From: a virus
Lineage: Duplodnaviria > Heunggongvirae > Uroviricota > Caudoviricetes
IMG/VR virus record: IMGVR_UViG_643692022_000004
Strand: one strand, 5' to 3'
DNA: 12,837 bases
Position 1 is the first letter of the stretch. Each line of letters starts with the position of its first letter. The position numbers and the translations under genes are program-made. The notes below the pieces were generated by a model. That model was not told where the DNA came from. It saw only the letters and a program-made list of their open reading frames with translations, and did not search any database. Shown here in pieces: positions 460 through 12,798 of the stretch.

Positions 460-557
460 GCCGGATGCGGGGTAAATGTTTTGTTCGTTCTGAAATGTCA
501 ATAAAATACAATGCATTTCAGGAGGTTAGTCGGCCTGATAAGCGTAGCGCATCAGGC
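460..557. repeat. REP-like extragenic palindromic sequences
   Basis: GCCGGATGCGG (460-470) and the imperfect palindrome GGCCTGATAAGCGTAGCGCATCAGGC (532-557) match the enterobacterial REP/PU motif family from memory; no convincing ORF covers them. Confidence 0.45.
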
Positions 558-963
558 AATTTGCATTTGTCATCAGTCGCAATCCGCATTACATGGTTCT
601 TTATTGTCACTACTCAAATTCGCTGTCGCCATTTTGCCGCCACAGCCCAAGAAAAAGGCTACGCTTTCGCGTATCCATTTGATTTATTTTATGAGTGCGA
701 AATATCGTCAGCACACACTTCTATGGCTCTGTCTTTCTTTACATTCCACCTACGCTCGGCAACTAACAGAAAGTGTTGGTATTGGCCTCATGGGAATTTC
801 TCGCTGTTTTTTCTGATGTTCCAGAGGAGCGTCATTGCCATGAGTCGTCTCCATGCTTTTAGACCCAATGAAAACGATGGTTCTTTTCGTTGGGCCTGAC
901 AATGGGCTTAAAAAGTTCAGAATAAATTAGTTTGCTTGAGATTTTGCGAGACAAATTGAAGGC

Positions 964-1550: not shown

Positions 1551-3884
1551 TCAGGCTGTTGCAGGGTCGTCACATTTTGGCAGCCAGTCGCCGTAGCTTT
1601 CCTCTTTCAGTGTCAGGTTGGTCTGTATCCCCTGTTTGGTATGGCGCTTCTCGTAATTCAGTCCGTATTCCTTCAGCATCACCGGCAGCCCCAGCCCGAA
1701 CATTTTCAGACTGAGTACATTCCGGTAGCCGTTTGCCTCCATGTAGGCCAGATAGGCGTGATAGAGGTATTTACGGTAATTACGCGGGATGATACTGGCG
1801 TTCCCCATATACATGCCGCTGGTCTGCGGCAGGGTTTCCAGATAGCCGATAAAATCAAACGTCGGGTCGGCATCCCGTTTGATGTTCAGTGCCTCGTCTG
1901 AGTTCTGCTGGGACTGAAGCAGTGACCGGGCGAGCATCGGGTCGCTGAACTTCTGCATCAGGTGACGCACGATGACCGCCAGCTCGCGGGTGATTTTGTC
2001 CTTAAGCTGCGGGTCGCGCTCCTGCGGGGCTATCTGTTCCGGGAAGTGAATAATCACCCGCCGGCGTGACACGCCGCCGCTGCGGTCGGTGAAGCGCATC
2101 GGGTTATTGTTCACGGCCAGAATCACCGCCGGGATGTGCGTGGAGTACGCATCCCGGTATTTCGGGTCAACGGACACTGCATCGCCGCCGGTGATGGCCT
2201 TGAGTCCGGCTCCGTCGCCGCTCCATTTTTCCTGGTCCGGCAGGCGTATCAGTGAGAAGCCAGTTAACGCGGCACGTTCACGCGGGGATTCCAGCGTCTC
2301 AATGGTGGCCGACGTGGCGTTATCCTCACCGGCCAGCAGGGTGGCTATTTCGGCCATGATACTTTTGCCGCTGCCGCCGGGACCGGTCACCTCCAGAAAG
2401 AGCTGCCAGTCGTAGCGGTTTGCCAGCACCATAAACAGTGCGGCCAGAATCACGTCGCGTTTTTCCGCACGACCACCGGCAGCACGGTCAAGCCAGCGCC
2501 AGAACGCGGGAGCGTGGGTTTCCAGCGTTTCACCGTCCACCGGCGGGGTGAAATCCACATCACACAGGGTACGCATCCAGTGTGACGGACTGTGCGGGTG
2601 GAACGTACCGTTCTGCGTGTCGAGCACGCCGTTACGAAAGCCAATCAGGCGGCGGGAGGGGGCTTCCTGCTGCGGAATAATCAGCTTCAGGGTGTCCACC
2701 ACGGAGGCCACCTTCCCGGAGGAGAATGGCGCGCGCAGACGCTGAAACAGCCCGGCCACATCCCGGGCAAAGTCCTGTGGCGGCAGCACCTTCCAGACAC
2801 CATTTTCATAGCGGGACAGAAGCTGGCCGTTGGCATCGACCGCGAGCGCCTCGCCGTAATGCTCATAGATACGCATGGCCTTTTCGCTGGTACTCATGGC
2901 GGAAAACTCCGCTTCGCTCATGGTGTCGAACGGGCTTTCAGCCGGTGGCCGGATGGCATCATAAATGGCCTTACGGGTGGCCTCCCCGCCGTACTGCGTG
3001 AAGGCATCATTCCAGTCACCGAAGACCGGCGGCAGGGCAACAACACCTTCACACGCATCTGCGGCTGCGGCGGCTTTTTTCTGGCCGTCACCGCTGAGGT
3101 CACGGTCAGCGGCAAGGACAATCTGACAGGCGGGGTGCTTCTGCCGGGCAAGGCTGGCCAGAGAAAGGAGGTTCACGGAAGAAAGCGCCACCATCACCGT
3201 TTCACCGGTCAGGTGATGCACGGTAAGTGCGGTCGCGTATCCCTCCGCTATCCACAGACGTTTTCCGGCCTGATTCTGTCCTTCAAGGATGTGACAGGTG
3301 CCCCTGACCTGTCCGCCTTTCAGGGTGCGCTTACGGCCGTCAGCACTGATTAACTGAAGGTTAACCAGTTCGCCGCGGTCGTCATACAGTGGCACCACAA
3401 GGTCACCGGCGCGCCAGCTCACGCCACCGGCTCTGTGTGTGCCGGTCAGCATCCGGCATTCCCGGCCGGGAAAGCCCTTGCGGGTCAGGTAGGCGTTACC
3501 GGTTCCGGGACGGGTTTTCGCCATCAGGGTTTGTGCCAGTGCGGCGGCGTTCTTCCGGGCAGCGTCTGTTTCAGCAACAGCGGCGGTCGTCACTGCCGGG
3601 TCAGCCGGGGGCAGGCTGCCGGTCACGGCAGCCACCTTTGCGGCCGCATCGGACGGGGAAACACCAAACACCTTTTCAACCAGTTTCAGGCCGTCACCGG
3701 CACCACACTGATTGCAGTACCAGGTGCCGCGCCCCTCCCTGTCATCAAAACGGAAGCGGTCACTCCCGCCACAGACCGGACAGGGCTGATGACGGTTCTT
3801 CAGCACCTGAATCCCCAGCGCCGGGAGGATACGCGGCCAGTGGCCGAGTGCATGGCTGACGGTGGCGGTTACGTTCATTTTCAT
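1551..3884 (-). CDS. alpha: P4 alpha-type primase-helicase (777 aa)
   Basis: ATG at 3884 with AAGGAG RBS. N-terminal zinc-binding primase motif CPVCGGSDRFRFDDREGRGTWYCNQCG, Walker A VTGPGGSGKS of a D5/SF3-type helicase, and length matching the recalled 777 aa of P4 alpha. Flanked by its cognate octamer iterons. Confidence 0.95.
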   Translation of the reverse strand: MKMNVTATVSHALGHWPRILPALGIQVLKNRHQPCPVCGGSDRFRFDDREGRGTWYCNQCGAGDGLKLVEKVFGVSPSDAAAKVAAVTGSLPPADPAVTTAAVAETDAARKNAAALAQTLMAKTRPGTGNAYLTRKGFPGRECRMLTGTHRAGGVSWRAGDLVVPLYDDRGELVNLQLISADGRKRTLKGGQVRGTCHILEGQNQAGKRLWIAEGYATALTVHHLTGETVMVALSSVNLLSLASLARQKHPACQIVLAADRDLSGDGQKKAAAAADACEGVVALPPVFGDWNDAFTQYGGEATRKAIYDAIRPPAESPFDTMSEAEFSAMSTSEKAMRIYEHYGEALAVDANGQLLSRYENGVWKVLPPQDFARDVAGLFQRLRAPFSSGKVASVVDTLKLIIPQQEAPSRRLIGFRNGVLDTQNGTFHPHSPSHWMRTLCDVDFTPPVDGETLETHAPAFWRWLDRAAGGRAEKRDVILAALFMVLANRYDWQLFLEVTGPGGSGKSIMAEIATLLAGEDNATSATIETLESPRERAALTGFSLIRLPDQEKWSGDGAGLKAITGGDAVSVDPKYRDAYSTHIPAVILAVNNNPMRFTDRSGGVSRRRVIIHFPEQIAPQERDPQLKDKITRELAVIVRHLMQKFSDPMLARSLLQSQQNSDEALNIKRDADPTFDFIGYLETLPQTSGMYMGNASIIPRNYRKYLYHAYLAYMEANGYRNVLSLKMFGLGLPVMLKEYGLNYEKRHTKQGIQTNLTLKEESYGDWLPKCDDPATA

Positions 3885-3898
3885 GGTGTTGTTCTCCT

Positions 3899-4219
3899 TC
3901 AGTGCAGTACCGGCGCTTTTATGTGACGGGCACAGAGTTCATCCATCACAACCAGCCCGAGAAAGGACAGCGACGGCGCGGCCTTCAGGGGGCCGGATTC
4001 CATTAAATCTTCCAGCAGGGCACAGGCTATCTGACGCCCTTTTTCCTCACCGTGCTGGTGCAGATAAAAGCCTTCCAGCTCAGCGGCGATGGCCGCCTCC
4101 AGTGACTCAAGGGTGAGATGCGGGTAGCGGTGCTGACGTTCGCACACGGTCAGCCAGGCACAGGCGACAGCGCGACGGTAAAGGGCAGCGCGTAAGACGG
4201 GCGGTAAGGGGGTTTTCAT
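3899..4219 (-). CDS. P4 orf106-like hypothetical protein (106 aa)
   Basis: ORF of the length and position of P4 orf106, between orf151 and alpha; its stop (3899-3901) overlaps the alpha RBS. Function unknown. Confidence 0.7.
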
Positions 4220-4354: not shown

Positions 4355-4810
4355 TTACAGATAATTGCGGTAACTGTTATCCGGGGTGATTTCCGGGTCA
4401 GGCTCCGTGCGGGGAATTTCCCGCCATTCCCGCGCCACCGGTGCCGCCCGGCTGACCGGAACAGGGTCCTGCGGGTAAATATCCAGATATTTCTCCCGCC
4501 ATTTCTGTAATTCCGGGTCTCCGGCCATTTCTTTCAGTACCGCATGCCGGTTTACGGGGCTGCGTTTAAACAGGTCAGGACGGTCACAGGTAAATTCCCG
4601 CAGAAAACGCCCCAGCGGGATGTCTGTGGTGCGCCCGTCAGCGAGGATACGCACAAGGATACTGAATTTACGGCGGTACGGGTTCCAGACAATGTCCGGG
4701 CAGCGGTACGGCATTTCCCACGGAATACCGTCTTCCAGAATGCCGACCACGGCCACATCGGGAAAACCGGCAGAACGGTAAATCTCACCAGGCTGGGGAA
4801 AATCAAACAT
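4355..4810 (-). CDS. P4 orf151-like hypothetical protein (151 aa)
   Basis: ORF of the length and position of P4 orf151; its ATG (4810-4808) overlaps the epsilon stop (4803-4805), suggesting translational coupling. Confidence 0.7.
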   Translation of the reverse strand: MFDFPQPGEIYRSAGFPDVAVVGILEDGIPWEMPYRCPDIVWNPYRRKFSILVRILADGRTTDIPLGRFLREFTCDRPDLFKRSPVNRHAVLKEMAGDPELQKWREKYLDIYPQDPVPVSRAAPVAREWREIPRTEPDPEITPDNSYRNYL

Positions 4811-5090
4811 GCGTCCTGTCTCCCCGGTCTTTCTGCTGGGCGAGAAAATCGCGGCACAGGCCTTTGGCTTTCAGCTCATTCAGCACAAAATCAATATCTT
4901 CATTCAGGTAGCTGAAAATATGCGGAATGTAGAGCTGATGCAGGCCGGAGAGTTCACGGTGAATCAAATCACCCCCAACAAACTGGGATACGGCGCTGGC
5001 GCGGTTGAGCTTATGGTAAGCCTCAATGCTGAGGTGTTCACGGGCGTCATGACGCGCTGAGACGGTCTGAGGGGCTTTTTTATTACGCAC
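4803..5090 (-). CDS. epsilon: Epsilon-like protein (95 aa; P4 anti-repressor that derepresses the helper prophage)
   Basis: Position immediately downstream of the immunity region and upstream of orf151/alpha, as in P4. The start appears to be GTG (5090-5088) preceded by a G-rich RBS. Identity rests on synteny and size, not on a recalled sequence. Confidence 0.6.
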
Positions 5091-5283
5091 GGGACACCCC
5101 CATCACTGGCAGACGGGCAGCAAGGGAGAGCACATAGTCACGGACAAGGGAACGGCGGGCGCTGCGTTCATCACCGGCGACGGTGCGAAGCATGCAGATA
5201 CGGGGATGACGGTCTGCGCGACGGACAGCCGCAAACACAAAGACAAATTCAGGGTGTGAAGGGGTAAGGGTTGTAGCCATGAT

Positions 5284-5402
5284 GGCAGCCTCCGTTAGAT
5301 AGCAGGTTACGCTATCGCCGGAGTTTCCACGCTCGATGGCGATAGCCCAGACGGGGGTGGAAATACCGGCTCTAACGGATACCGGCCAGCCCGGAGGCTG
5401 CC
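5284..5402 (-). ncRNA. Candidate CI-like immunity RNA (structured RNA in the P4 immunity region)
   Basis: Perfect 11-bp long-range inverted repeat ggcagcctccg (5284-5294) / cggaggctgcc (5392-5402) enclosing a perfect 9-bp hairpin gctatcgcc (5311-5319) / ggcgatagc (5338-5346). The locus lies between vis and epsilon where P4 encodes the CI RNA. Exact ends are uncertain. Confidence 0.3.
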
Positions 5403-5528
5403 CCGCCTGAGCTACCATTGACTCTGCGGCATAATGAGCGGACGCGGGCAGGATGCACGGAGTGCCATCTGCTCGACTGACCACACACCACACCATAATC
5501 TGGCGCTCTGTGGCGTTGATTGCGACAC

Positions 5529-5550
5529 AAAAAAAGACGCATGGCGCGTC
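5529..5550 (-). terminator. Candidate attenuator/terminator hairpin in the leader between the early promoter and the CI-like RNA
   Basis: On the minus strand the stem GACGC/GCGTC (5546-5550 / 5536-5540) with loop GCCAT is followed by a 7-T run (5529-5535). The stem is short, so the call is weak. Confidence 0.35.
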
Positions 5551-5613
5551 ATATGTCGCCGTTAGATTGCTCGGGTTTCCACGCCCGGCTGCCGATTTTG
5601 CGACAGCGGAAAA

Positions 5614-5643
5614 ACTATATCCGCAAATGCCGGAAAAAGGCAA
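5614..5643 (-). promoter_or_regulatory. Candidate sigma70 promoter (PLE-like) downstream of vis
   Basis: On the minus strand TTGCCT (5643-5638), an 18-bp spacer, then TATAGT (5619-5614), directed toward the immunity region and epsilon. Hexamer match by eye only. Confidence 0.25.
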
Positions 5644-5678
5644 GCCAGAAAAAGGGAGTTTTTGCAGAGCGGGCATCA

Positions 5679-5945
5679 TCATGCGTCGTACCCCCGTTTG
5701 CGTCCGGCAATGCGCCCGGCCATCCATGCGGTGACTTCAGAGTGCAGCCAGGCCACATTTTTACCGCCAAGACTCACCTGCGGCGGAAATTCCCCCTTAC
5801 GGATGAGTTCATAGATGGTCGAGCGTGACAGGCCGCACAGGTGCATCACTTCCGGAAGACGTAAAAAACGCTCCTGTGTGATGTCCGGCAGCGGCATCAG
5901 TGGCGTCACAGGGGCGGGAGACGGGGAAGAAAAAACAGCTTGCAT
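5679..5945 (-). CDS. vis: Vis-like excisionase/transcriptional regulator (88 aa; AlpA/Xis-type helix-turn-helix)
   Basis: 88-aa ORF with a GAGG RBS. Contains the AlpA/Vis-type motif [45 protein letters not shown]. Same size and position as P4 orf88 (vis) between the late promoter region and the immunity region. Confidence 0.8.
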
Positions 5946-6224: not shown

Positions 6225-6328
6225 GGTGAACAGTGGTGAACAGACGGTGAACAGTCATTACTGCGATTGTTCACCCTTTAACTTACTGTATTACTTATCT
6301 TTTTTCTTATGGTGAACAGAGGTGAACA
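6225..6328. repeat. ori-like replication origin: cluster of six GGTGAACA/TGTTCACC octamer iterons
   Basis: ggtgaaca at 6225-6232, 6235-6242, 6246-6253, 6311-6318, 6321-6328 and tgttcacc at 6268-6275, followed by an A/T-rich stretch (6331-6350). Same octamer as in crr, and located between vis and sid as in P4. Confidence 0.65.
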
Positions 6329-6426: not shown

Positions 6427-6498
6427 TCTGCAATGCGTCGTGTTGTTGTCCGGTGTACGTCACAATTTTCTCAACCTGAAGTGACGAGGAGCCGGAAA

Positions 6499-7233
6499 AT
6501 GTCTGACAACACCATCCCTGAATATCTGCAACCCGCACTGGCACAACTGGAAAAGGCCAGAGCCGCCCACCTTGAGAACGCCCGACTGATGGATGAGACC
6601 GTCACGGCCATTGAACGGGCAGAGCAGGAAAAAAATGCGCTGGCGCAGGCCGACGGAAACGACGCTGACGACTGGCGCACGGCCTTTCGTGCAGCCGGTG
6701 GTGTCCTGAGCGACGAGCTGAAACAGCGCCACATTGAGCGCGTGGCACGCCGGGAGCTGGTACAGGAATATGACAATCTGGCCGTGGTGCTGAATTTCGA
6801 ACGTGAACGCCTGAAAGGGGCGTGTGACAGCACGGCCACCGCCTACCGGAAGGCACATCATCACCTTCTGAGTCTGTATGCAGAGCATGAGCTGGAACAC
6901 GCCCTGAATGAAACCTGTGAGGCGCTTGTCCGGGCAATGCATCTGAGCATTCTGGTACAGGAAAATCCGCTCGCCAACACCACCGGCCATCAGGGCTACG
7001 TCGCACCGGAAAAGGCTGTCATGCAGCAGGTGAAATCATCGCTGGAACAGAAAATTAAACAGATGCAAATCAGCCTCACCGGCGAGCCGGTTCTCCGGCT
7101 GACCGGACTGTCAGCGGCAACACTTCCTCACATGGATTATGAGGTGGCAGGCACACCGGCACAGCGCAAGGTGTGGCAGGACAAAATAGACCAGCAGGGA
7201 GCAGTGCTTAAGGCCAGAGGACTGCTGTCATGA
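6499..7233 (+). CDS. sid: Sid-like capsid size determination (external scaffold) protein (244 aa)
   Basis: ATG at 6499 preceded by AGGAG (6486-6490); the track ORF begins 66 nt further upstream but lacks an RBS. The product starts MSDNTIPEYL and is 244 aa, the recalled length of P4 Sid. First gene of the sid-delta-psu operon. Confidence 0.85.
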   Translation: MSDNTIPEYLQPALAQLEKARAAHLENARLMDETVTAIERAEQEKNALAQADGNDADDWRTAFRAAGGVLSDELKQRHIERVARRELVQEYDNLAVVLNFERERLKGACDSTATAYRKAHHHLLSLYAEHELEHALNETCEALVRAMHLSILVQENPLANTTGHQGYVAPEKAVMQQVKSSLEQKIKQMQISLTGEPVLRLTGLSAATLPHMDYEVAGTPAQRKVWQDKIDQQGAVLKARGLLS

Positions 7234-7730
7234 TTTACTGCCCGTCGTGTGGACATGTTGCTCACACCCGCCGCGCACATTTCATGGACGATGGCACCAA
7301 GATAATGATTGCACAGTGCCGGAATATTTATTGCTCTGCGACATTTGAAGCGAGTGAAAGCTTTTTCTCTGACAGTAAAGATTCAGGAATGGAATACATT
7401 TCAGGCAAACAGAGATACCGCGATTCACTGACGTCAGCCTCCGGCAGTATGAAACGCCCGAAAAGAATGCTTGTTACCGGATATTGTTGTCGGAGATGTA
7501 AAGGCCTTGCACTGTCAAGAACATCGCGGCGTCTGTCTCAGGAAGTCACCGAGCGTTTTTATGTGTGCACGGATCCGGGCTGTGGTCTGGTGTTTAAAAC
7601 GCTTCAGACCATCAACCGCTTCATTGTCCGCCCGGTCACGCCGGACGAACTGGCAGAAATCCTGCATGAAAAACAGGAACTGCCGCCAGTACGCTTAAAA
7701 ACACAATCATATTCGCTGCGTCTGGAATGA
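7230..7730 (+). CDS. delta: Delta-like late transcriptional activator (166 aa, tandem Ogr-type zinc-finger domains)
   Basis: Start overlaps the sid stop (ATGA at 7230-7233). Two Cys4 modules: CPSCGH...CRNIYC and CRRCKG...CTDPGC. Length equals the recalled 166 aa of P4 Delta. Confidence 0.9.
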   Translation: MIYCPSCGHVAHTRRAHFMDDGTKIMIAQCRNIYCSATFEASESFFSDSKDSGMEYISGKQRYRDSLTSASGSMKRPKRMLVTGYCCRRCKGLALSRTSRRLSQEVTERFYVCTDPGCGLVFKTLQTINRFIVRPVTPDELAEILHEKQELPPVRLKTQSYSLRLE

Positions 7731-7803: not shown

Positions 7804-8376
7804 ATGGAAAGCACAGCCTTACAGCAGGCCTTTGACACCTGTCAGAATAACAAAGCAGCATGGCTGCAACGCAAAAATGAGCTGGCTGCGGCCGAACAGG
7901 AATATCTGCGGCTTCTGTCCGGGGAAGGCAGAAACGTCAGTCGCCTGGACGAATTACGCAATATTATCGAAGTCAGAAAATGGCAGGTGAATCAGGCTGC
8001 CGGTCGTTATATTCGTTCGCATGAAGCCGTTCAGCACATCAGCATCCGCGACCGGCTGAATGATTTTATGCAGCAGCACGGCACAGCACTGGCGGCCACA
8101 CTGGCACCGGAGCTGATGGGCTACAGTGAGCTGACGGCCATTGCCCGAAACTGTGCCATACAGCGTGCCACAGATGCCCTGCGTGAAGCCCTTCTGTCCT
8201 GGCTTGCGAAGGGGGAAAAAATTAATTATTCCGCACAGGATAGCGACATTTTAACGACCATCGGATTCAGGCCTGACGCGGCTTCGGTGGATGACAGCCG
8301 TGAAAAATTCACTCCTGCGCAGAACATGATTTTTTCGCGTAAAAGTGCGCAACTGGCATCACATCAGTCTGTGTAA
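7804..8376 (+). CDS. psu: Psu-like polarity suppression / capsid decoration protein (190 aa)
   Basis: 190-aa ORF starting MESTALQQAFDTCQNN, matching my recollection of P4 Psu in sequence start and length; last gene before cos. Confidence 0.9.
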   Translation: MESTALQQAFDTCQNNKAAWLQRKNELAAAEQEYLRLLSGEGRNVSRLDELRNIIEVRKWQVNQAAGRYIRSHEAVQHISIRDRLNDFMQQHGTALAATLAPELMGYSELTAIARNCAIQRATDALREALLSWLAKGEKINYSAQDSDILTTIGFRPDAASVDDSREKFTPAQNMIFSRKSAQLASHQSV

Positions 8377-8450: not shown

Positions 8451-8540
8451 TCCTGCCTCATTTTCTGCAAACCGCGCCATTCCCGGCGCGGTCTGAGCGT
8501 GTCAGTGCAACTGCATTAAAACCGCCCCGCAAAGCGGGCG

Positions 8541-8559
8541 GGCGAGGCGGGGAAAGCAC
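8541..8559. other. cos site (P2/P4-type 19-nt cohesive end)
   Basis: GGCGAGGCGGGGAAAGCAC matches the P2/P4 cohesive-end sequence as I recall it; preceded by a GC-rich hairpin CCGCCCCGC-aaa-GCGGGCGG (8522-8543). Confidence 0.65.
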
Positions 8560-8575: not shown

Positions 8576-11026
8576 TTATTGTTTTGCACTTAAAATATTA
8601 TCAACAACTCGTTTCACACTTTCGAAAGATGACTCTCCTGTTTTAAAAGATTCGTTCATGTCAAAATAACTAGGTTTATTTACAAAACTACTCCAAGCAT
8701 TTGACAGGTAATCTTTGAATGCAATGGAGCGTTTATATCGATCCTCAATATTGAATGACTCACATGAAGCTCGCATATTATTGACTACTTCAGGATTAAA
8801 TATAGGAGTGTCAAATACCATTGCATCAAGATAGGCGAAATCACTTATCCATCGCTTGAGATGATACAAACCAATAGATGTGATTCTAAATTTCGTTGGC
8901 ATTTCTCCTATTAAACCTGTTTCGTCCTCTTCAAATGTAAACCTCTGTGAGGTCTCTATTAATTTTTTGTTTGTCGTTCTTCTTAGCGCATTTTCAGTCT
9001 GCTCAGGAATAAAACCAAGGCTTTGCATTTCATCTATAATGGACTTGGTTAGACAGAATCCATCCCGGTCCTGAAGCTCTTTTTTTTCTGATAATAGCGC
9101 CATTATTAATGGTACTAAAAAGTGTTCTGATATATCTGCAAAAGAAACATCAAAAATATTCATGGCAAGAGATGTGTTTGGATCAAAGTGTGAATATTCA
9201 CCAAGTAAAGCTTGTTTAGAAAATTCATGTACAGGAATTATATATCTACCTTCTTCTTCGTAAGTTCGAATTATTTTATCCGCTTCAACATTTGGGCTGC
9301 CTATAAAACCAGTAATAAAGCTAAGCGCTTGTCTTACATTGCCTCCCGTAATGTTTTCAATAAACTCTCCTAGTGATTTATTTTTTCTTAGAGATTGAAG
9401 CAATACTCTGATAAATGAAGAAAGATTGTCTATATGGATTCTAACAAATTCGGCATGTTCAAGAGGTATCTTTCCTTCAGACATTTCGAGAGCAAACTGA
9501 AGTCGTTTATCAAGAACTTGATCTATCCTTGGTGGTGCAATTGTAAAGACCTTGTGGGGATAAGCAGTTAATGCACCTGATGCTTTTGATTTAAAGAATG
9601 TCTGAGGTCTGACAGATATAAATACTAAAGCATTCCAATCTTTTGCTAACTCCTGAGAAATAACAAATGCTCGCTGTTGCGTTTCGAAATCTCGTTGATC
9701 AGCATTATCTAGACAAATAATTACTTGCTTTTTAGTTTGTTTTGATAAATGAGCGATTGAGTTTTTTAAATGTTCATCTTTAGCATCTAATTTTTCCGCC
9801 AACATCTCAAGTTGTTTTTCCTCATATCGTTCTCTATTTGAATCTCGTAAACTCCCCCAGATTCCTTTTGAAAACCTTTGAATATCTCTTGAATATACGC
9901 CTTTAACAAATTTCATTTCGGTTATATCACAGGAGTATTTATTGTCTAGTTGTTGCTCTATCTCATTTAATATAAATTTTTGAAGATTATTAGCTAATGT
10001 TGCTTTAGAGCCTAAATCTATATATAAATAAATTGCCTCTTTAAATTCTTTGAATGCACTTGAATAAATTAAATTTTTTACAAATGACGTTTTACCAACA
10101 CCAACATCACCAATTAATACAATTGGACGCTTTGATAGAGCCTCGGCCATAATACTTGGATCTAAAGTTTGCTCTTTACGATCAGGTTTAACAGAAGTTA
10201 TATGTGGAGATAATTCATTGTCACTAAATAGAGCAGCATATCTGGCTTGAAGCATTTCTTTACTTAGCAAAGCATATTTTGAAAGGGCACCACTTTCGCA
10301 GTAGCATTTTTGGTAAAAAATCTCTTCAATTTCATTGCTTTCAAGAGCATCTTGAATTATTAATTCTGATATTTGTCTTAATGAGGTCTGTATATCACTA
10401 GCATAGCGTATTTTAGGATACATTGATAAATAGGTTGATAATTTATTTGGAATACCACTTATGTCAGAGGTAAGATACTTAATTAAACGTTGTTCTTTCA
10501 CACCGTAATATGAAAGCATATTCCATGCTAAAGAAAAGTTCCGTAATAAAGAATCCAAACTGTCAAAAACTAAAGCTTTTCCCTCTAAAGGCGAACAGCC
10601 ATTTTGAGTGCTTGCAATAAATGATATAAATTGATGTCCATTAGTGGCTATTGCAATTGGTGTTCCTCGTGATGAACAATATTTTTGTACCTGTATAATT
10701 GCGTCTTTTAAATCGTCATTTGATCTTAAGAGAGTTGGTATGTCGATTATGTTCTTATTTGATAAACCTGCTGGTATTTCAAAAGTCCGGCCTTCTCTTT
10801 TCGCTTCAACAATAACTTGCCGTGGCTTTCCTAATTCATAATCTGTAAAAGTATGATCATGATAGTTTTCAACTTCTATTTGATCATCAGGCCAGCTAAG
10901 AACGTCAATAATTATTTTGTTTATTATATGATGCCTAGTCTGGGCTTCATTTCTTATCTTGGCGCTGTCACTATATTCGTTTACTAATTCTCTTAATAAA
11001 TTTTCGGCTTGTATCATTGTAACCAT
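8576..11026 (-). CDS. Candidate anti-phage defence protein: N-terminal PD-(D/E)xK nuclease (HsdR-N/Mrr-like) fused to a P-loop NTPase with a C-terminal domain of unknown function (816 aa)
   Basis: Uninterrupted 816-codon ORF, ATG at 11026 with GGAGAG RBS 7 nt upstream. Residues ~26-76: NEAQTRHHIINKII...IEVE...DYEL...VIVEAKREG, the E/D/ExK pattern of HsdR-N/Mrr-type nucleases. Walker A GDVGVGKTS (~306-314), extended Walker B VIICLDNADQ (~435-444), and GGNVRQAL (~561-568) resembling an AAA+/STAND sensor motif. No SF2 helicase motifs. Sits in the P4 psu/cos-int slot; strongly AT-rich against a GC-rich backbone. Confidence 0.85.
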   Translation of the reverse strand: MVTMIQAENLLRELVNEYSDSAKIRNEAQTRHHIINKIIIDVLSWPDDQIEVENYHDHTFTDYELGKPRQVIVEAKREGRTFEIPAGLSNKNIIDIPTLLRSNDDLKDAIIQVQKYCSSRGTPIAIATNGHQFISFIASTQNGCSPLEGKALVFDSLDSLLRNFSLAWNMLSYYGVKEQRLIKYLTSDISGIPNKLSTYLSMYPKIRYASDIQTSLRQISELIIQDALESNEIEEIFYQKCYCESGALSKYALLSKEMLQARYAALFSDNELSPHITSVKPDRKEQTLDPSIMAEALSKRPIVLIGDVGVGKTSFVKNLIYSSAFKEFKEAIYLYIDLGSKATLANNLQKFILNEIEQQLDNKYSCDITEMKFVKGVYSRDIQRFSKGIWGSLRDSNRERYEEKQLEMLAEKLDAKDEHLKNSIAHLSKQTKKQVIICLDNADQRDFETQQRAFVISQELAKDWNALVFISVRPQTFFKSKASGALTAYPHKVFTIAPPRIDQVLDKRLQFALEMSEGKIPLEHAEFVRIHIDNLSSFIRVLLQSLRKNKSLGEFIENITGGNVRQALSFITGFIGSPNVEADKIIRTYEEEGRYIIPVHEFSKQALLGEYSHFDPNTSLAMNIFDVSFADISEHFLVPLIMALLSEKKELQDRDGFCLTKSIIDEMQSLGFIPEQTENALRRTTNKKLIETSQRFTFEEDETGLIGEMPTKFRITSIGLYHLKRWISDFAYLDAMVFDTPIFNPEVVNNMRASCESFNIEDRYKRSIAFKDYLSNAWSSFVNKPSYFDMNESFKTGESSFESVKRVVDNILSAKQ

Positions 11027-11049
11027 CGAAAACTCTCCAAATGAAAAAA

Positions 11050-12249
11050 TTAAAAGGATAAAGATTTATGAACAAAAGAACTCCACCAGTTCATTAAATT
11101 CTTCCTTTGTTCTAAGTAAGTAGAACGGTTATAAGCTTTTCTGACTTCATTCTTATCGCTATGAGCTAAGGCTGATTCTATTACATCAGCGTTAAATTCG
11201 GCTTCATTCATTGCAGTGCTGGCAATAGAACGTAAACCATGAGCAACGAGTTTTCCACCATATCCTATCCTTTTTAAAGCGGCATTTGCAGTTTGGCTAT
11301 TCATGGGTTTTTGTGGATCATTTCTACTTGGGAAAACATACTCACGATGAGCACTAATAGTTTTCATAACTTCAAGAATATCTAAAGCCTTAGGTGATAA
11401 AGGTACAATATGTTCGCGCTTAGCTTTCATCCTTTCAGCAGGAATTCTCCAGAGTTTTGCATCAAAATCGATCTCCTTCCATTGAGTGCCTGAAGCCTCT
11501 GAAGGGCGCACAAGGGTGAGTAGTTGCCATTCAATCAGACAACGGGTCTGCACAGAAAGATTTGACATAGATAAAGAATACATAAGTTTCGGTAATTCTT
11601 CAGGTCGTAGTGTTGGCATGTTTTTCTTTTTAGGTTTCTCAAATGCCATACCAATACCTGATGCAGGATTAGCGTCAATTAAGCCAGTATTAACGGCATA
11701 AATCATAATTTCATTAATACGTTGTACCAAACGACGAACAGTTTCAAGTGCTCCACGAGCTTTAATTGGTTCTAAGGTTTCAATTAATGTACGAGCTTTT
11801 ATTTTCTGAACAGGAATTTCACCGATAGTAGGGAAAATATCTCTCTCTAAGGAGCGCCATACATCCTTTGCGTAATCAGGTGTTACGTTGTTTCTTTTTA
11901 TGGCAAACCATTTTGAGGCAACGTTTGAAAAAATACTATCTTCCGCAATCTGTTGCTGTACAGTGACTTGCTCACTGTATATCTGTGGATCAATACCTCG
12001 GGCCAGCAAGGAAAGATACTCAGCACGAGTGTTTCTGGCTTCAGCCAGAGAAAGGGCAGGGAAAGACCCTAAACCAATCATGGTTCGTTGTTTTGTTACT
12101 GGTTTCTGGTATCGGAAACGCCACAGCTTCCTACCGTTCGTTTTTACGAGTAGAAAAAGTCCATTACCATCATGTAGCGTTAGATCCTTTGCAGTTGCTT
12201 TAGCCCGTGATAGTTCAGTGTTAGTAAGAGGGCGTGTTGTACGTGACAC
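11050..12249 (-). CDS. int: Tyrosine integrase (P4-family, 399 aa), ssrA-specific
   Basis: N-terminus typical of P4-family integrases (...RPLTNTELSRAKA...LHDGNGLFLLVKTNGRKLWRFRY...), C-terminal catalytic region with HGLR and a tyrosine in KAYNRSTY. Apparent GTG start at 12249 with a GAGGT RBS. Directly adjacent to the ssrA 3' end. Confidence 0.9.
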   Translation of the reverse strand: MSRTTRPLTNTELSRAKATAKDLTLHDGNGLFLLVKTNGRKLWRFRYQKPVTKQRTMIGLGSFPALSLAEARNTRAEYLSLLARGIDPQIYSEQVTVQQQIAEDSIFSNVASKWFAIKRNNVTPDYAKDVWRSLERDIFPTIGEIPVQKIKARTLIETLEPIKARGALETVRRLVQRINEIMIYAVNTGLIDANPASGIGMAFEKPKKKNMPTLRPEELPKLMYSLSMSNLSVQTRCLIEWQLLTLVRPSEASGTQWKEIDFDAKLWRIPAERMKAKREHIVPLSPKALDILEVMKTISAHREYVFPSRNDPQKPMNSQTANAALKRIGYGGKLVAHGLRSIASTAMNEAEFNADVIESALAHSDKNEVRKAYNRSTYLEQRKNLMNWWSSFVHKSLSF

Positions 12250-12323: not shown

Positions 12324-12367
12324 TAATCACTGGATTTAGCGGGATATTCTCGGACAACTGCGGACAC

Positions 12368-12386
12368 AAAAAAGCCCACAGGGCTT
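12368..12386 (-). terminator. Rho-independent terminator downstream of ssrA, supplied by the element
   Basis: On the minus strand AGCCC-tgt-GGGCT is followed by a 6-T run (12368-12373), about 50 nt beyond the tmRNA 3' CCA end. Confidence 0.5.
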
Positions 12387-12435
12387 GTGCCATGCGGGCT
12401 TTCAGGATTTTTCCGGACATATCCGGAAGAGCAAG

Positions 12436-12798
12436 TGGTGGAGCTGGCGGGAGTTGAACCCGCGTCCGAAATTCCTACATCCTCGGTACTACATGCTTAG
12501 TCAGTCTTTACATTCGCTTGCCAGCTGCGGACGGACACGCCACTAACAAACTAGCCTGATTAAGTTTTAACGCTTCAACCCCAGGCAGGGCTTCCACGCG
12601 ATCTCTTTTGGGTTTGACCTCTCTTGATCCCCGTCCTAAGAGCGGAGGCTAGGGAGAGAGGGCTCTAAGCAGGTTATTAAGCTGCTAAAGCGTAGTTTTC
12701 GTCGTTTGCGACTATTTTTTGCGGCTTTTTACGAGGCCAACCGCCCCTCGGCATGCACCTTGGGTTTCGCAAATCCCGTCGAATCCAGAATCAGCCCC
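12436..12798 (-). ncRNA. ssrA: tmRNA (transfer-messenger RNA)
   Basis: Reverse complement begins GGGGCTGATTCTGGATTCGACGGG and ends ...GGTTCAACTCCCGCCAGCTCCACCA; contains the tag reading frame GCAAACGACGAAAACTACGCTTTAGCAGCTTAA (ANDENYALAA). 363 nt, matching E. coli ssrA as recalled. Confidence 0.95.

Follow-up and report, generated by a model that had tools for sequence, protein, structure and literature searches.

We examined an 816-codon gene that stands alone in the slot between cos and int of a P4-like satellite, and that probably encodes a stand-alone anti-phage protein with an NLR-like organisation. In this reading, a sensor, a STAND/ORC-clade AAA+ switch and a nuclease effector are joined in one polypeptide that the satellite carries as hotspot cargo. 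We favour it because the slot is a defence hotspot, because the domain layout and the invariant catalytic centres are those expected of such a protein, because relatives lie on mobile elements and in defence islands, and because no partner gene accompanies it. The window, the whole stretch of DNA that was analysed, is 12,837 nucleotides long.

A lone gene in the cos–int slot

The earlier note had described an open reading frame of 816 codons, which is confirmed on the minus strand by the list of reading frames and its translation. The following features frame it.

7804..8376, plus strand: psu (polarity suppression), the P4 backbone gene across cos from the 816-codon gene (Pfam Psu, E 1.5e-88)
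8541-8522, minus strand: terminator-like hairpin overlapping cos
8541..8559, plus strand: P2/P4 cos cohesive-end sequence, the left edge of the hotspot (exact 19-nt match; 0 expected by chance)
8576..11026, minus strand: the 816-codon gene, the sole gene of the P4 cos–int hotspot
11033..11038, minus strand: ribosome-binding site GGAGAG, read directly from the sequence, separated from the ATG by 6 nt and from the preceding int stop codon by 11 nt
11050..12249, minus strand: P4-type tyrosine integrase gene int, the right edge of the hotspot (Pfam Arm-DNA-bind_3, Phage_int_M and Phage_integrase)
12436-12798: tmRNA gene

The gene starts with ATG and its product is WP_000258270.1 (CAQ88009.1), which is annotated in E. 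coli as 'P-loop NTPase family protein' and is present in identical form on 151 contigs. Because G+C is ~33% across 8576-11026, stops are expected at ~7.5% of codons, and by our own arithmetic a run of 816 open codons would arise by chance with p ~1e-27. More than 1,100 homologues share its length and the mean column identity in a set of 33 sequences is 65%; the reading frame is therefore a real gene under selection.

The host element is a P4-like satellite of 11.4 kb at ssrA that appears to be complete, with att repeats, the alpha primase-helicase and an intact ori and crr iterons. With psu, int, the tmRNA gene and an exact cos all located, the genomic context proposed in the earlier note, a lone gene between cos and int, holds. 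With cos/psu on one side and int on the other, the gene occupies the position of P4 satellite hotspot cargo, and the contrast in G+C between the gene (~33%) and the P4 core (55–62%) indicates that it was swapped in. Experiments have established the slot as a defence hotspot (PMC9122126), and 6 of 8 randomly picked P4 loci that held only unknown genes gave phage protection in a 2026 preprint (10.64898/2026.02.27.708500).

A gene so near to cos (15 nt) and immediately 3' of int, which has the same orientation, lies 23 nt upstream and may be co-transcribed with it, could instead serve the life cycle of the satellite, by attacking or manipulating the genome of a P2-like helper or by taking part in replication of the satellite or in its packaging beside cos. 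The ORC/Cdc6-like folds described below, which are those of replication initiators, would fit such a role. We consider it quite improbable, given that the element brings an alpha primase-helicase, ori and crr iterons of its own, that most P4-like elements have quite different genes in this slot (PMC9122126), and that relatives, near as well as remote, are also present away from satellites: on plasmids, within a defence island of Vibrio and as a moron of a prophage.

Domains of the 816-residue protein

Every motif that had been read by eye from the translation could be placed (NEAQTR at residues 26-31, DYEL at 62-65, VIVEAKREG at 71-79, GDVGVGKTS at 306-314, VIICLDNADQ at 435-444 and GGNVRQAL at 561-568), and the effector–NTPase–sensor layout that had been inferred from them is supported by the succession of a nuclease, an AAA+ nucleotide-binding domain, a lid, a winged helix and a helical end.

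10547..10951, minus strand: PD-(D/E)xK nuclease of the HsdR-N/BpuSI-N type, residues 26-160, with key residues E27, D62, E74-x-K76 and Q112-xxx-Y116
10136..10546, minus strand: residues 161-297, a helical region (161-245) followed by a conserved low-confidence segment (246-297), with C241-Y242-C243 just before the segment
9527..10135, minus strand: AAA+/STAND-like NTPase base, residues 298-500
10088-10111, minus strand: Walker A, G306-T313
9698-9721, minus strand: Walker B, residues 436-443, with D440-N441-A-D443
9197..9526, minus strand: helical lid (helices in the predicted structure), residues 501-610, with the sensor-2-like T560-G-G-N-V-R565
8879..9133, minus strand: winged helix-turn-helix domain, residues 632-716
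8579..8878, minus strand: small helical bundle, residues 717-816, the least conserved domain

The N-terminal domain has the alpha-beta-beta-beta-alpha-beta core of a PD-(D/E)xK nuclease. Its catalytic triad and QxxxY motif (D62, E74, K76, Q112 and Y116) are unchanged across 56 relatives, down to 23% identity; QxxxY is typical of RecB/HsdR-type members of this superfamily. Pfam HSDR_N and HSDR_N_2 match the query weakly (E 0.034, 14.7 bits; cut-off 25) and reach E <= 1e-3 in five of the 56 relatives, at best 1.6e-5. Fold and invariant D62/E74/K76 together bear out the HsdR-N-type nuclease that the earlier note had placed at this end. Segment 246-297 has pLDDT <50 in the predicted structure and is as conserved as the folded domains (mean top-residue frequency 0.67).

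The NTPase carries K312, D440 and D443, all invariant among the 56 relatives, again down to 23% identity; N441, which follows the Walker B aspartate, is invariant too, and R473, at the sensor-1 position, is nearly so, as are G562, N563 and R565 in the lid. The lid motif T560-G-G-N-V-R565 resembles the 'GDxR' sensor-2 motif of Cdc6. By predicted structure and fold searches, the nucleotide-binding domain, helical domain and winged helix together form a STAND module. The winged helix belongs to the PadR/MarR type, which binds DNA, and the bundle after it is possibly a sensor or an oligomerisation element. A large C-terminal repeat or sensor region (TPR, LRR or WD40) is absent: no Pfam repeat family matches, and the chain ends ~100 helical residues beyond the winged helix.

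The earlier note had called the NTPase STAND/NACHT-like; its Walker A and lid motifs and the STAND module stand, whereas the NACHT Walker B signature D[GAS]hDE, as defined in the Kibby preprint, does not, as the protein reads D440-N441-A442-D443-Q444. The Pfam NACHT model scores 16.3 bits on the query, below its cut-off of 26.7 and in the Walker A region only, and matches 13 of the 56 relatives at E <= 1e-3. The best structural matches to the NTPase, lid and winged helix are ORC/Cdc6, TnsC and MuB, with which the protein shares the fold of AAA+ base, lid and winged helix, a sensor-2-like motif (GGNxR) and, between its strands 2 and 3, a helical insertion (here ~85 residues, 345-432) that sits where the initiator-specific motif of those proteins lies. 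It has neither their classical Walker B hhhhDE, with DN in place of DE, nor a family-level sequence match (Pfam ORC-CDC6-like, 1 of 56 relatives, E 8.8e-4). In classical AAA+ proteins the Walker B aspartate is followed by glutamate; ORC/Cdc6, TnsC and MuB have this DE and no nuclease, and they differ further in acting in replication and transposition rather than occupying cargo slots of mobile elements. As judged from the predicted fold, the NTPase resembles ORC/Cdc6/TnsC no less than NLRs, and the likeness to NLRs is an analogy of fold and layout, not of membership.

The structural matches Cdc6/ORC, TnsC and MuB are DNA-loading AAA+ proteins and not protein sensors, which counts against the defence reading. 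Because the winged helix is of a DNA-binding type, direct recognition of DNA is as plausible as protein sensing. The protein might then be an ATP-dependent, DNA-sensing restriction-like enzyme, a single chain of type IV-like or McrBC-like kind, which would load onto DNA as a ring or filament through its winged helix and helical insertion, as ORC/Cdc6, TnsC and MuB do, and would cut DNA marked by something that the host lacks, for instance a modification, free ends or a replication intermediate. We rate this as unlikely, albeit with appreciable weight, because an invariant asparagine (D440-N441) replaces the glutamate of the classical AAA+ Walker B, a second acidic residue (D443) is positioned as in STAND proteins, the NACHT model matches the 13 relatives mentioned above, and a winged helix is integral to every STAND module, where it does not bind DNA. 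More doubtful again is the idea that the family forms an unrecognised class of single-chain immune nuclease, in which a DNA-loading switch of ORC/Cdc6 type, in place of a protein-sensing NLR, would use the winged helix and the insertion resembling an initiator motif to assemble on a feature of phage DNA and would direct HsdR-type cutting.

Relatives, known systems and earlier record

The protein falls in no named family, as the earlier note had maintained. In PADLOC-DB 2.0.0 the only match of the query is to mad8 (E 2.5e-4, 18.6 bits), in the ATPase region only; the 56 relatives give weak mad8 matches in ten cases and five stray single-member matches near E 1e-3, and neither they nor the query match the AVAST models. 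NCBIfam gave no family match, and the PDB yielded no solved relative by sequence, with either the single sequence or a profile. PHROG 14719, whose function is not known, spans the full length of the protein; five IMG/VR contigs carry relatives, and the cultured-phage genomes of INPHARED gave no match.

Several named systems were considered and rejected. MADS, of which mad8 is a component, is set aside on the 18.6-bit ATPase-only match and the absence of any other gene from the slot. Reve aligns by BLASTP, phmmer and hhalign at the P-loop only (hhalign probability 11%), and the Mrr_cat/AAA_35 NLR-like protein of P4 (row 13 of Rousset et al.) is likewise unrelated beyond the P-loop. Hailibu is DUF4297-HerA and Upx is 143 kDa (both Kranzusch-lab preprint); the other nuclease–NTPase systems in that preprint are helicase-based or already excluded by PADLOC.

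The nuclease is of the same structural type as the N-terminal nuclease of HsdR and of the type IIG/IIL enzymes BpuSI and DrdV, with D...ExK and QxxxY. Unlike them, the protein has no SF2 helicase or methyltransferase domain: ResIII and Helicase_C gave no match, and methyltransferase or specificity genes (hsdM, hsdS) were not found nearby, where the neighbours are psu and int. The gene is therefore not a remnant of a type I or III restriction–modification system, in agreement with the earlier note.

The family comprises 1,865 clusters at 50% identity and keeps a length of ~800 residues throughout. Relatives occur on satellites, prophages, plasmids and in defence islands, with the gene standing alone. 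A Vibrio relative adjoins SMODS+S_4TM and NERD genes, a Shewanella plasmid relative adjoins a type II restriction–modification system, a Desulfobulbus relative has a reverse transcriptase nearby, a prophage relative is a moron flanked by tape-measure and head genes, and relatives in other islands lie near an integrase and adjoin MmeI, SNF2 and methyltransferase genes. No conserved partner was found in 12 loci, where integrase (6 of 12) and AlpA (4 of 12) alone recur as neighbours.

The gene is present in 2 of 5,426 complete E. coli genomes, and the P4 element around it is degraded in one E. coli genome. Such rarity and decay are what a decaying or inactive remnant of a former restriction–modification or NLR gene might show. 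That explanation is highly improbable, and conservation already speaks against it: no catalytic residue varies in more than 50 distant relatives and length is conserved across all clusters, while the frame of 816 codons is intact behind a good ribosome-binding site, and the P4 element in the window is complete.

Rarity in E. coli also counts against the anti-phage reading, as do the absence of a PADLOC model beyond weak mad8, the departure from the NACHT signature and the lack of a repeat-type sensor.

The candidate had been sighted before. Row 64 of the P4 Table S1B of Rousset et al. 2022 (BpuSI_N/NB-ARC/NACHT, 12 occurrences), a catalogue entry, is identical to the protein over ~400 printed residues, and row 23 of the P2 hotspot table (HSDR_N_2/KAP_NTPase/NB-ARC, 140 occurrences, E. 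coli), likewise a catalogue entry, is a distant homologue over nuclease and NTPase (hhalign probability 98%, E 5.7e-14). The main text of that paper describes tests of the TIR-NLR and, in the passages concerned, mentions none of the row-64 family (PMC9122126). The accessions WP_000258270, B7LUV1 and CAQ88009 were not found in the main texts of the literature, where we also found no published experiment on the protein or its family. It can thus still be called uncharacterised, as the earlier note had it: a sound defence candidate, the idea of which is already in Rousset et al. 2022.

Among characterised systems, bNACHT25 and bNACHT32, clade 6 bacterial NLR-related proteins, are alike in their described layout, with a single gene, an N-terminal DNase of restriction-endonuclease fold, a STAND-type NTPase and its winged helix in the centre and, in place of repeats, a short helical C-terminal domain. 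In them, this REase–NACHT–short helical arrangement depends on DNase activity for defence, and in bNACHT25 the nuclease active site includes D48 and the winged helix S508 (Kibby et al., PMC12169576). They differ in having D[GAS]hDE where the present family has invariant DNADQ, and here ~300 residues, among them an additional helical region and the low-confidence conserved segment, precede the NTPase. Avs/AVAST proteins share the effector–NTPase–sensor logic, often with nuclease effectors, and are single-gene systems, often on prophages, that are activated by oligomerisation (Gao et al.; PMC12803255); their C-terminal sensors are large, mostly TPR-like and at least 400 residues long, compared with ~100 residues past the winged helix here. 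Reve is a single gene of the same P4 hotspot with a described ORC-like fold and AAA_22/KAP P-loop matches, and protects strongly against Drexlerviridae (10.64898/2026.02.27.708500), but it has 586 residues, carries Walker A at residue 27 and lacks a nuclease domain (synthesised sequence, Dataset E1).

Proposed mechanism and significance

We hypothesize that, in keeping with the favoured anti-phage reading, the protein would rest in the uninfected cell as a nucleotide-bound, inactive monomer. A cue of infection, perhaps a protein of the phage or a structure formed by its DNA or its replication, would be sensed by the winged helix together with the small C-terminal helical bundle, possibly aided by residues 246-297. 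The cue would then drive ATP-dependent oligomerisation of the AAA+ module, which would pair the N-terminal HsdR-type PD-(D/E)xK domains and switch on DNA cleavage. Cutting of phage DNA, and probably of host DNA too, would stop the infection.

If the family proved instead to be an ORC/Cdc6-type immune nuclease, it would represent a methylation-independent restriction machine in one polypeptide, spread across satellites, prophages and plasmids. With its unusually small sensor end and ORC-like switch in ~93 kDa, the protein would be a tractable model for how sensing is coupled to a nuclease in a minimal STAND/AAA+ module, and could reveal whether such modules sense DNA directly. Should it be protective, a large and compact family (~1,900 clusters at 50% identity), which is represented in P4 and P2 hotspots, on plasmids and in prophages and to which PADLOC 2.0.0 is blind, would join the nuclease-armed NLR-like defences, and some P4 satellites now taken to be 'defence-less' would become carriers of defence.

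The P4-like satellite and the occupant of its cos–int slot

In the window, a P4-like satellite has ssrA as its integration site. The slot between cos and int, which Rousset et al. established in P4 as an anti-phage hotspot (PMC9122126), has only one occupant here, the gene for an 816-aa protein.

Features of the satellite and its integration site
954–1015 and 12356–12417, imperfect direct repeat (62 nt, 82% identity)
1551–3884, alpha primase-helicase
3899–4219, DUF5375
4803–5090, derepression protein
5083–5727, Ash
5679–5945, AlpA
6433–7233, sid-like gene
7230–7730, delta
7804–8376, psu
8541–8559, P2/P4 cos sequence (exact 19-nt match)
8576–11026 (−), 816-codon ORF from the ORF list of the window
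11050–12249, int
12436–12798, tmRNA gene

One copy of the 62-nt repeat closely follows the 3′ end of ssrA and the other lies beyond the alpha gene; the two are probably the att sites bounding a P4-like element of about 11.4 kb. Twelve copies of the iteron TGTTCACC (0.35 expected) form two clusters of six, at 1237–1500 and 6225–6328, positioned where crr and ori of P4 would lie. The first cluster is overlapped by a 121-nt repeat pair (1204–1324 and 1385–1505), and a listed ORF at 1127–1345 is therefore probably not a gene. Given the gene set, the bounding repeats, the iterons and the exact cos, the element looks complete. A terminator-like G+C hairpin 3′ of the 816-aa gene overlaps the cos cohesive-end sequence (8522–8559), and this backbone sequence flanks every P4 hotspot fragment synthesized in a 2026 preprint. 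Outside the satellite lie a DinI-like ORF at 1–243 (−; E 8e-19) and a 144-aa ORF at 465–899 (+) in DNA of about 43% G+C, the latter without a Pfam or PHROG match; positions 1–950 may belong to the margin of another mobile element.

The earlier note had described one large gene in this slot with nuclease and NTPase motifs, and the ORF list and translation confirm both the gene and each quoted motif: NEAQTR (residues 26–31), DYEL (62–65), VIVEAKREG (71–79), GDVGVGKTS (306–314), VIICLDNADQ (435–444) and GGNVRQAL (561–568). The gene region has a G+C content of about 33%, against 55–62% in neighbouring genes; by our own estimate for AT-rich DNA, an open frame of 816 codons has a chance probability of about 1e-27, and it is thus no chance event. 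Six nucleotides separate the ATG from an upstream GGAGAG, read as a ribosome-binding site, and the stop codon of int is 23 nt upstream.

Domain organization and conservation

In Pfam, AAA_22 matches the protein just above threshold, and NACHT, nSTAND and others match the P-loop only. PHROG 14719 (unknown function) matches over the whole length. The structure model adds the following to the N-terminal PD-(D/E)xK nuclease and the AAA+/STAND-like NTPase.

Regions of the 816-aa protein in the structure model
Residues 161–245, helical region
Residues 246–297 (nt 10136–10291), low-confidence segment (pLDDT below 50)
Residues 501–610, lid
Residues 717–816, helical bundle, beyond the winged helix at which structural matching stops; the structural search returned no match for it

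The low-confidence segment is conserved to the same degree as the folded domains, and an invariant C241-Y242-C243 closely precedes it; the segment may act in regulation or at an interface and not be a passive linker.

A word-indexed search returned more than 1,100 relatives of 810–825 aa, annotated exclusively as hypothetical, ‘GTPase SAR1 family’ or ‘predicted type IV restriction endonuclease’. An exhaustive search of 1.84 billion representatives gave 1,865 clusters at E ≤ 1e-3, of which 531 reached E ≤ 1e-30, with the architecture of about 800 aa retained down to 27% identity. Across 56 diverse relatives (23–51% identical to the query), invariant positions include nuclease residues E27, R31, E53, D62, Y63, E74, K76, Q112, Y116 and N129, NTPase residues G306, G311, K312, D440, N441 and D443, and also Q450, R508, N623, R714 and Y773; R473 and G562-N563-x-R565 are nearly so. 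Invariance of both residue sets indicates that the predicted nuclease and NTPase activities are both under purifying selection. Pfam matches among these relatives were to AAA_16 (43), AAA_22 (34), NACHT (13), KAP_NTPase (8), ATPase_2 (6), HSDR_N or HSDR_N_2 (5) and ORC-CDC6-like (1), and the sole recurrent PADLOC match was a weak one to mad8 (10 of 56).

Distribution across mobile elements

The exact protein (CAQ88009.1, B7LUV1_ESCF3, WP_000258270.1) was found on 151 contigs and in 2 of 5,426 complete E. coli genomes. In one of these two, E. coli CH4799 (locus L001), the P4 element is degraded, with delta truncated and alpha absent; the 816-aa gene and int are still intact.

Relatives occupy varied contexts. 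The Pectobacterium gene lies at ssrA downstream of the same integrase type, and that of Congregibacter lies downstream of an integrase and adjoins MmeI, SNF2 and methyltransferase genes. In Vibrio the gene stands alone with SMODS+S_4TM and NERD genes close by, and in Desulfobulbus a reverse transcriptase is close by. Relatives also occur on 31 plasmids, adjoining a type II restriction–modification system on one from Shewanella, and in prophages, integrase-proximal in one. In a siphovirus-like prophage (L013, 8001–10382), a 38%-identical relative is carried as a moron, encoded on the opposite strand and flanked by the tape-measure gene on one side and the head–tail connector and capsid genes on the other, an unusual site inside a structural module.

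When flanking ORFs of 12 loci were compared all-against-all, the only recurrent neighbours were integrase (6 of 12) and AlpA (4 of 12), so the family is stand-alone cargo of mobile elements and defence islands. Six of the 12 genes (those of the window and of L003, L005, L009, L010 and L012) immediately follow the gene for a P4-type tyrosine integrase, including relatives with only 41–56% identity, and this cargo position seems to travel with the family across different islands. Distribution and conservation together make a role specific to the satellite improbable, and decay of the gene highly improbable.

A candidate single-gene defence protein

The most likely reading, which we favour with some reserve, is that of a single-gene anti-phage protein of the sensor–switch–effector kind: in response to an infection cue, the AAA+/STAND-like module would oligomerize in an ATP-dependent manner and so activate the HsdR-type nuclease. 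The interpretation of the earlier note is upheld in substance. That no named defence family would claim the protein was also borne out, for PADLOC 2.0.0 (a weak mad8 match to the ATPase part only) and NCBIfam (no match); no AVAST model matched. It was not, however, a first sighting: WP_000258270 is listed in Table S1A of Rousset et al. 2022 (PMC9122126); in the main-text passage following the tested TIR-NLR such nuclease variants are named only in passing (PMC9122126). In the literature searched, no main text cites an accession of the protein. Row 23 of the P2 hotspot table in the same study (HSDR_N_2/KAP_NTPase/NB-ARC, 140 occurrences; PMC9122126) is confirmed by profile alignment as a distant homologue (hhalign probability 98%, E 5.7e-14, over nuclease and NTPase).

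Nuclease-armed, NLR-like single-gene defence is a known kind. The closest characterized analogues are bNACHT25/32, which have a REase–NACHT–NCH1 layout, require their DNase activity for defence and sense through DnaJ (PMC12169576). The 816-aa family, with its invariant DNADQ, departs from D[GAS]hDE, the Walker B signature of NACHT proteins. Whereas Avs families bear large sensors, the putative sensor here is unusually compact. In the 2026 preprint, eight P4 loci with no genes but unknown ones were tested, and six were protective (10.64898/2026.02.27.708500). The published description of one of these, Reve, fits the 816-aa protein (10.64898/2026.02.27.708500); we rejected identity, as the synthesized Reve has 586 aa and no nuclease, and the P-loop alone aligns.

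The best structural matches of the switch are ORC/Cdc6, TnsC and MuB, and the main rival reading, which we consider rather unlikely, is that the switch loads directly on DNA as these do, which would make the protein a one-chain restriction-like enzyme. In favour of this rival are the winged helix, which is of PadR/MarR type, and the small size of the C-terminal end; the DN...D form of Walker B, and the matches of a quarter of relatives to NACHT, lean to the STAND side.

The 816-aa family is a large candidate defence family beyond the coverage of PADLOC 2.0.0, distinguished, as modelled, by an ORC-like switch and by a putative sensor that is unusually compact.
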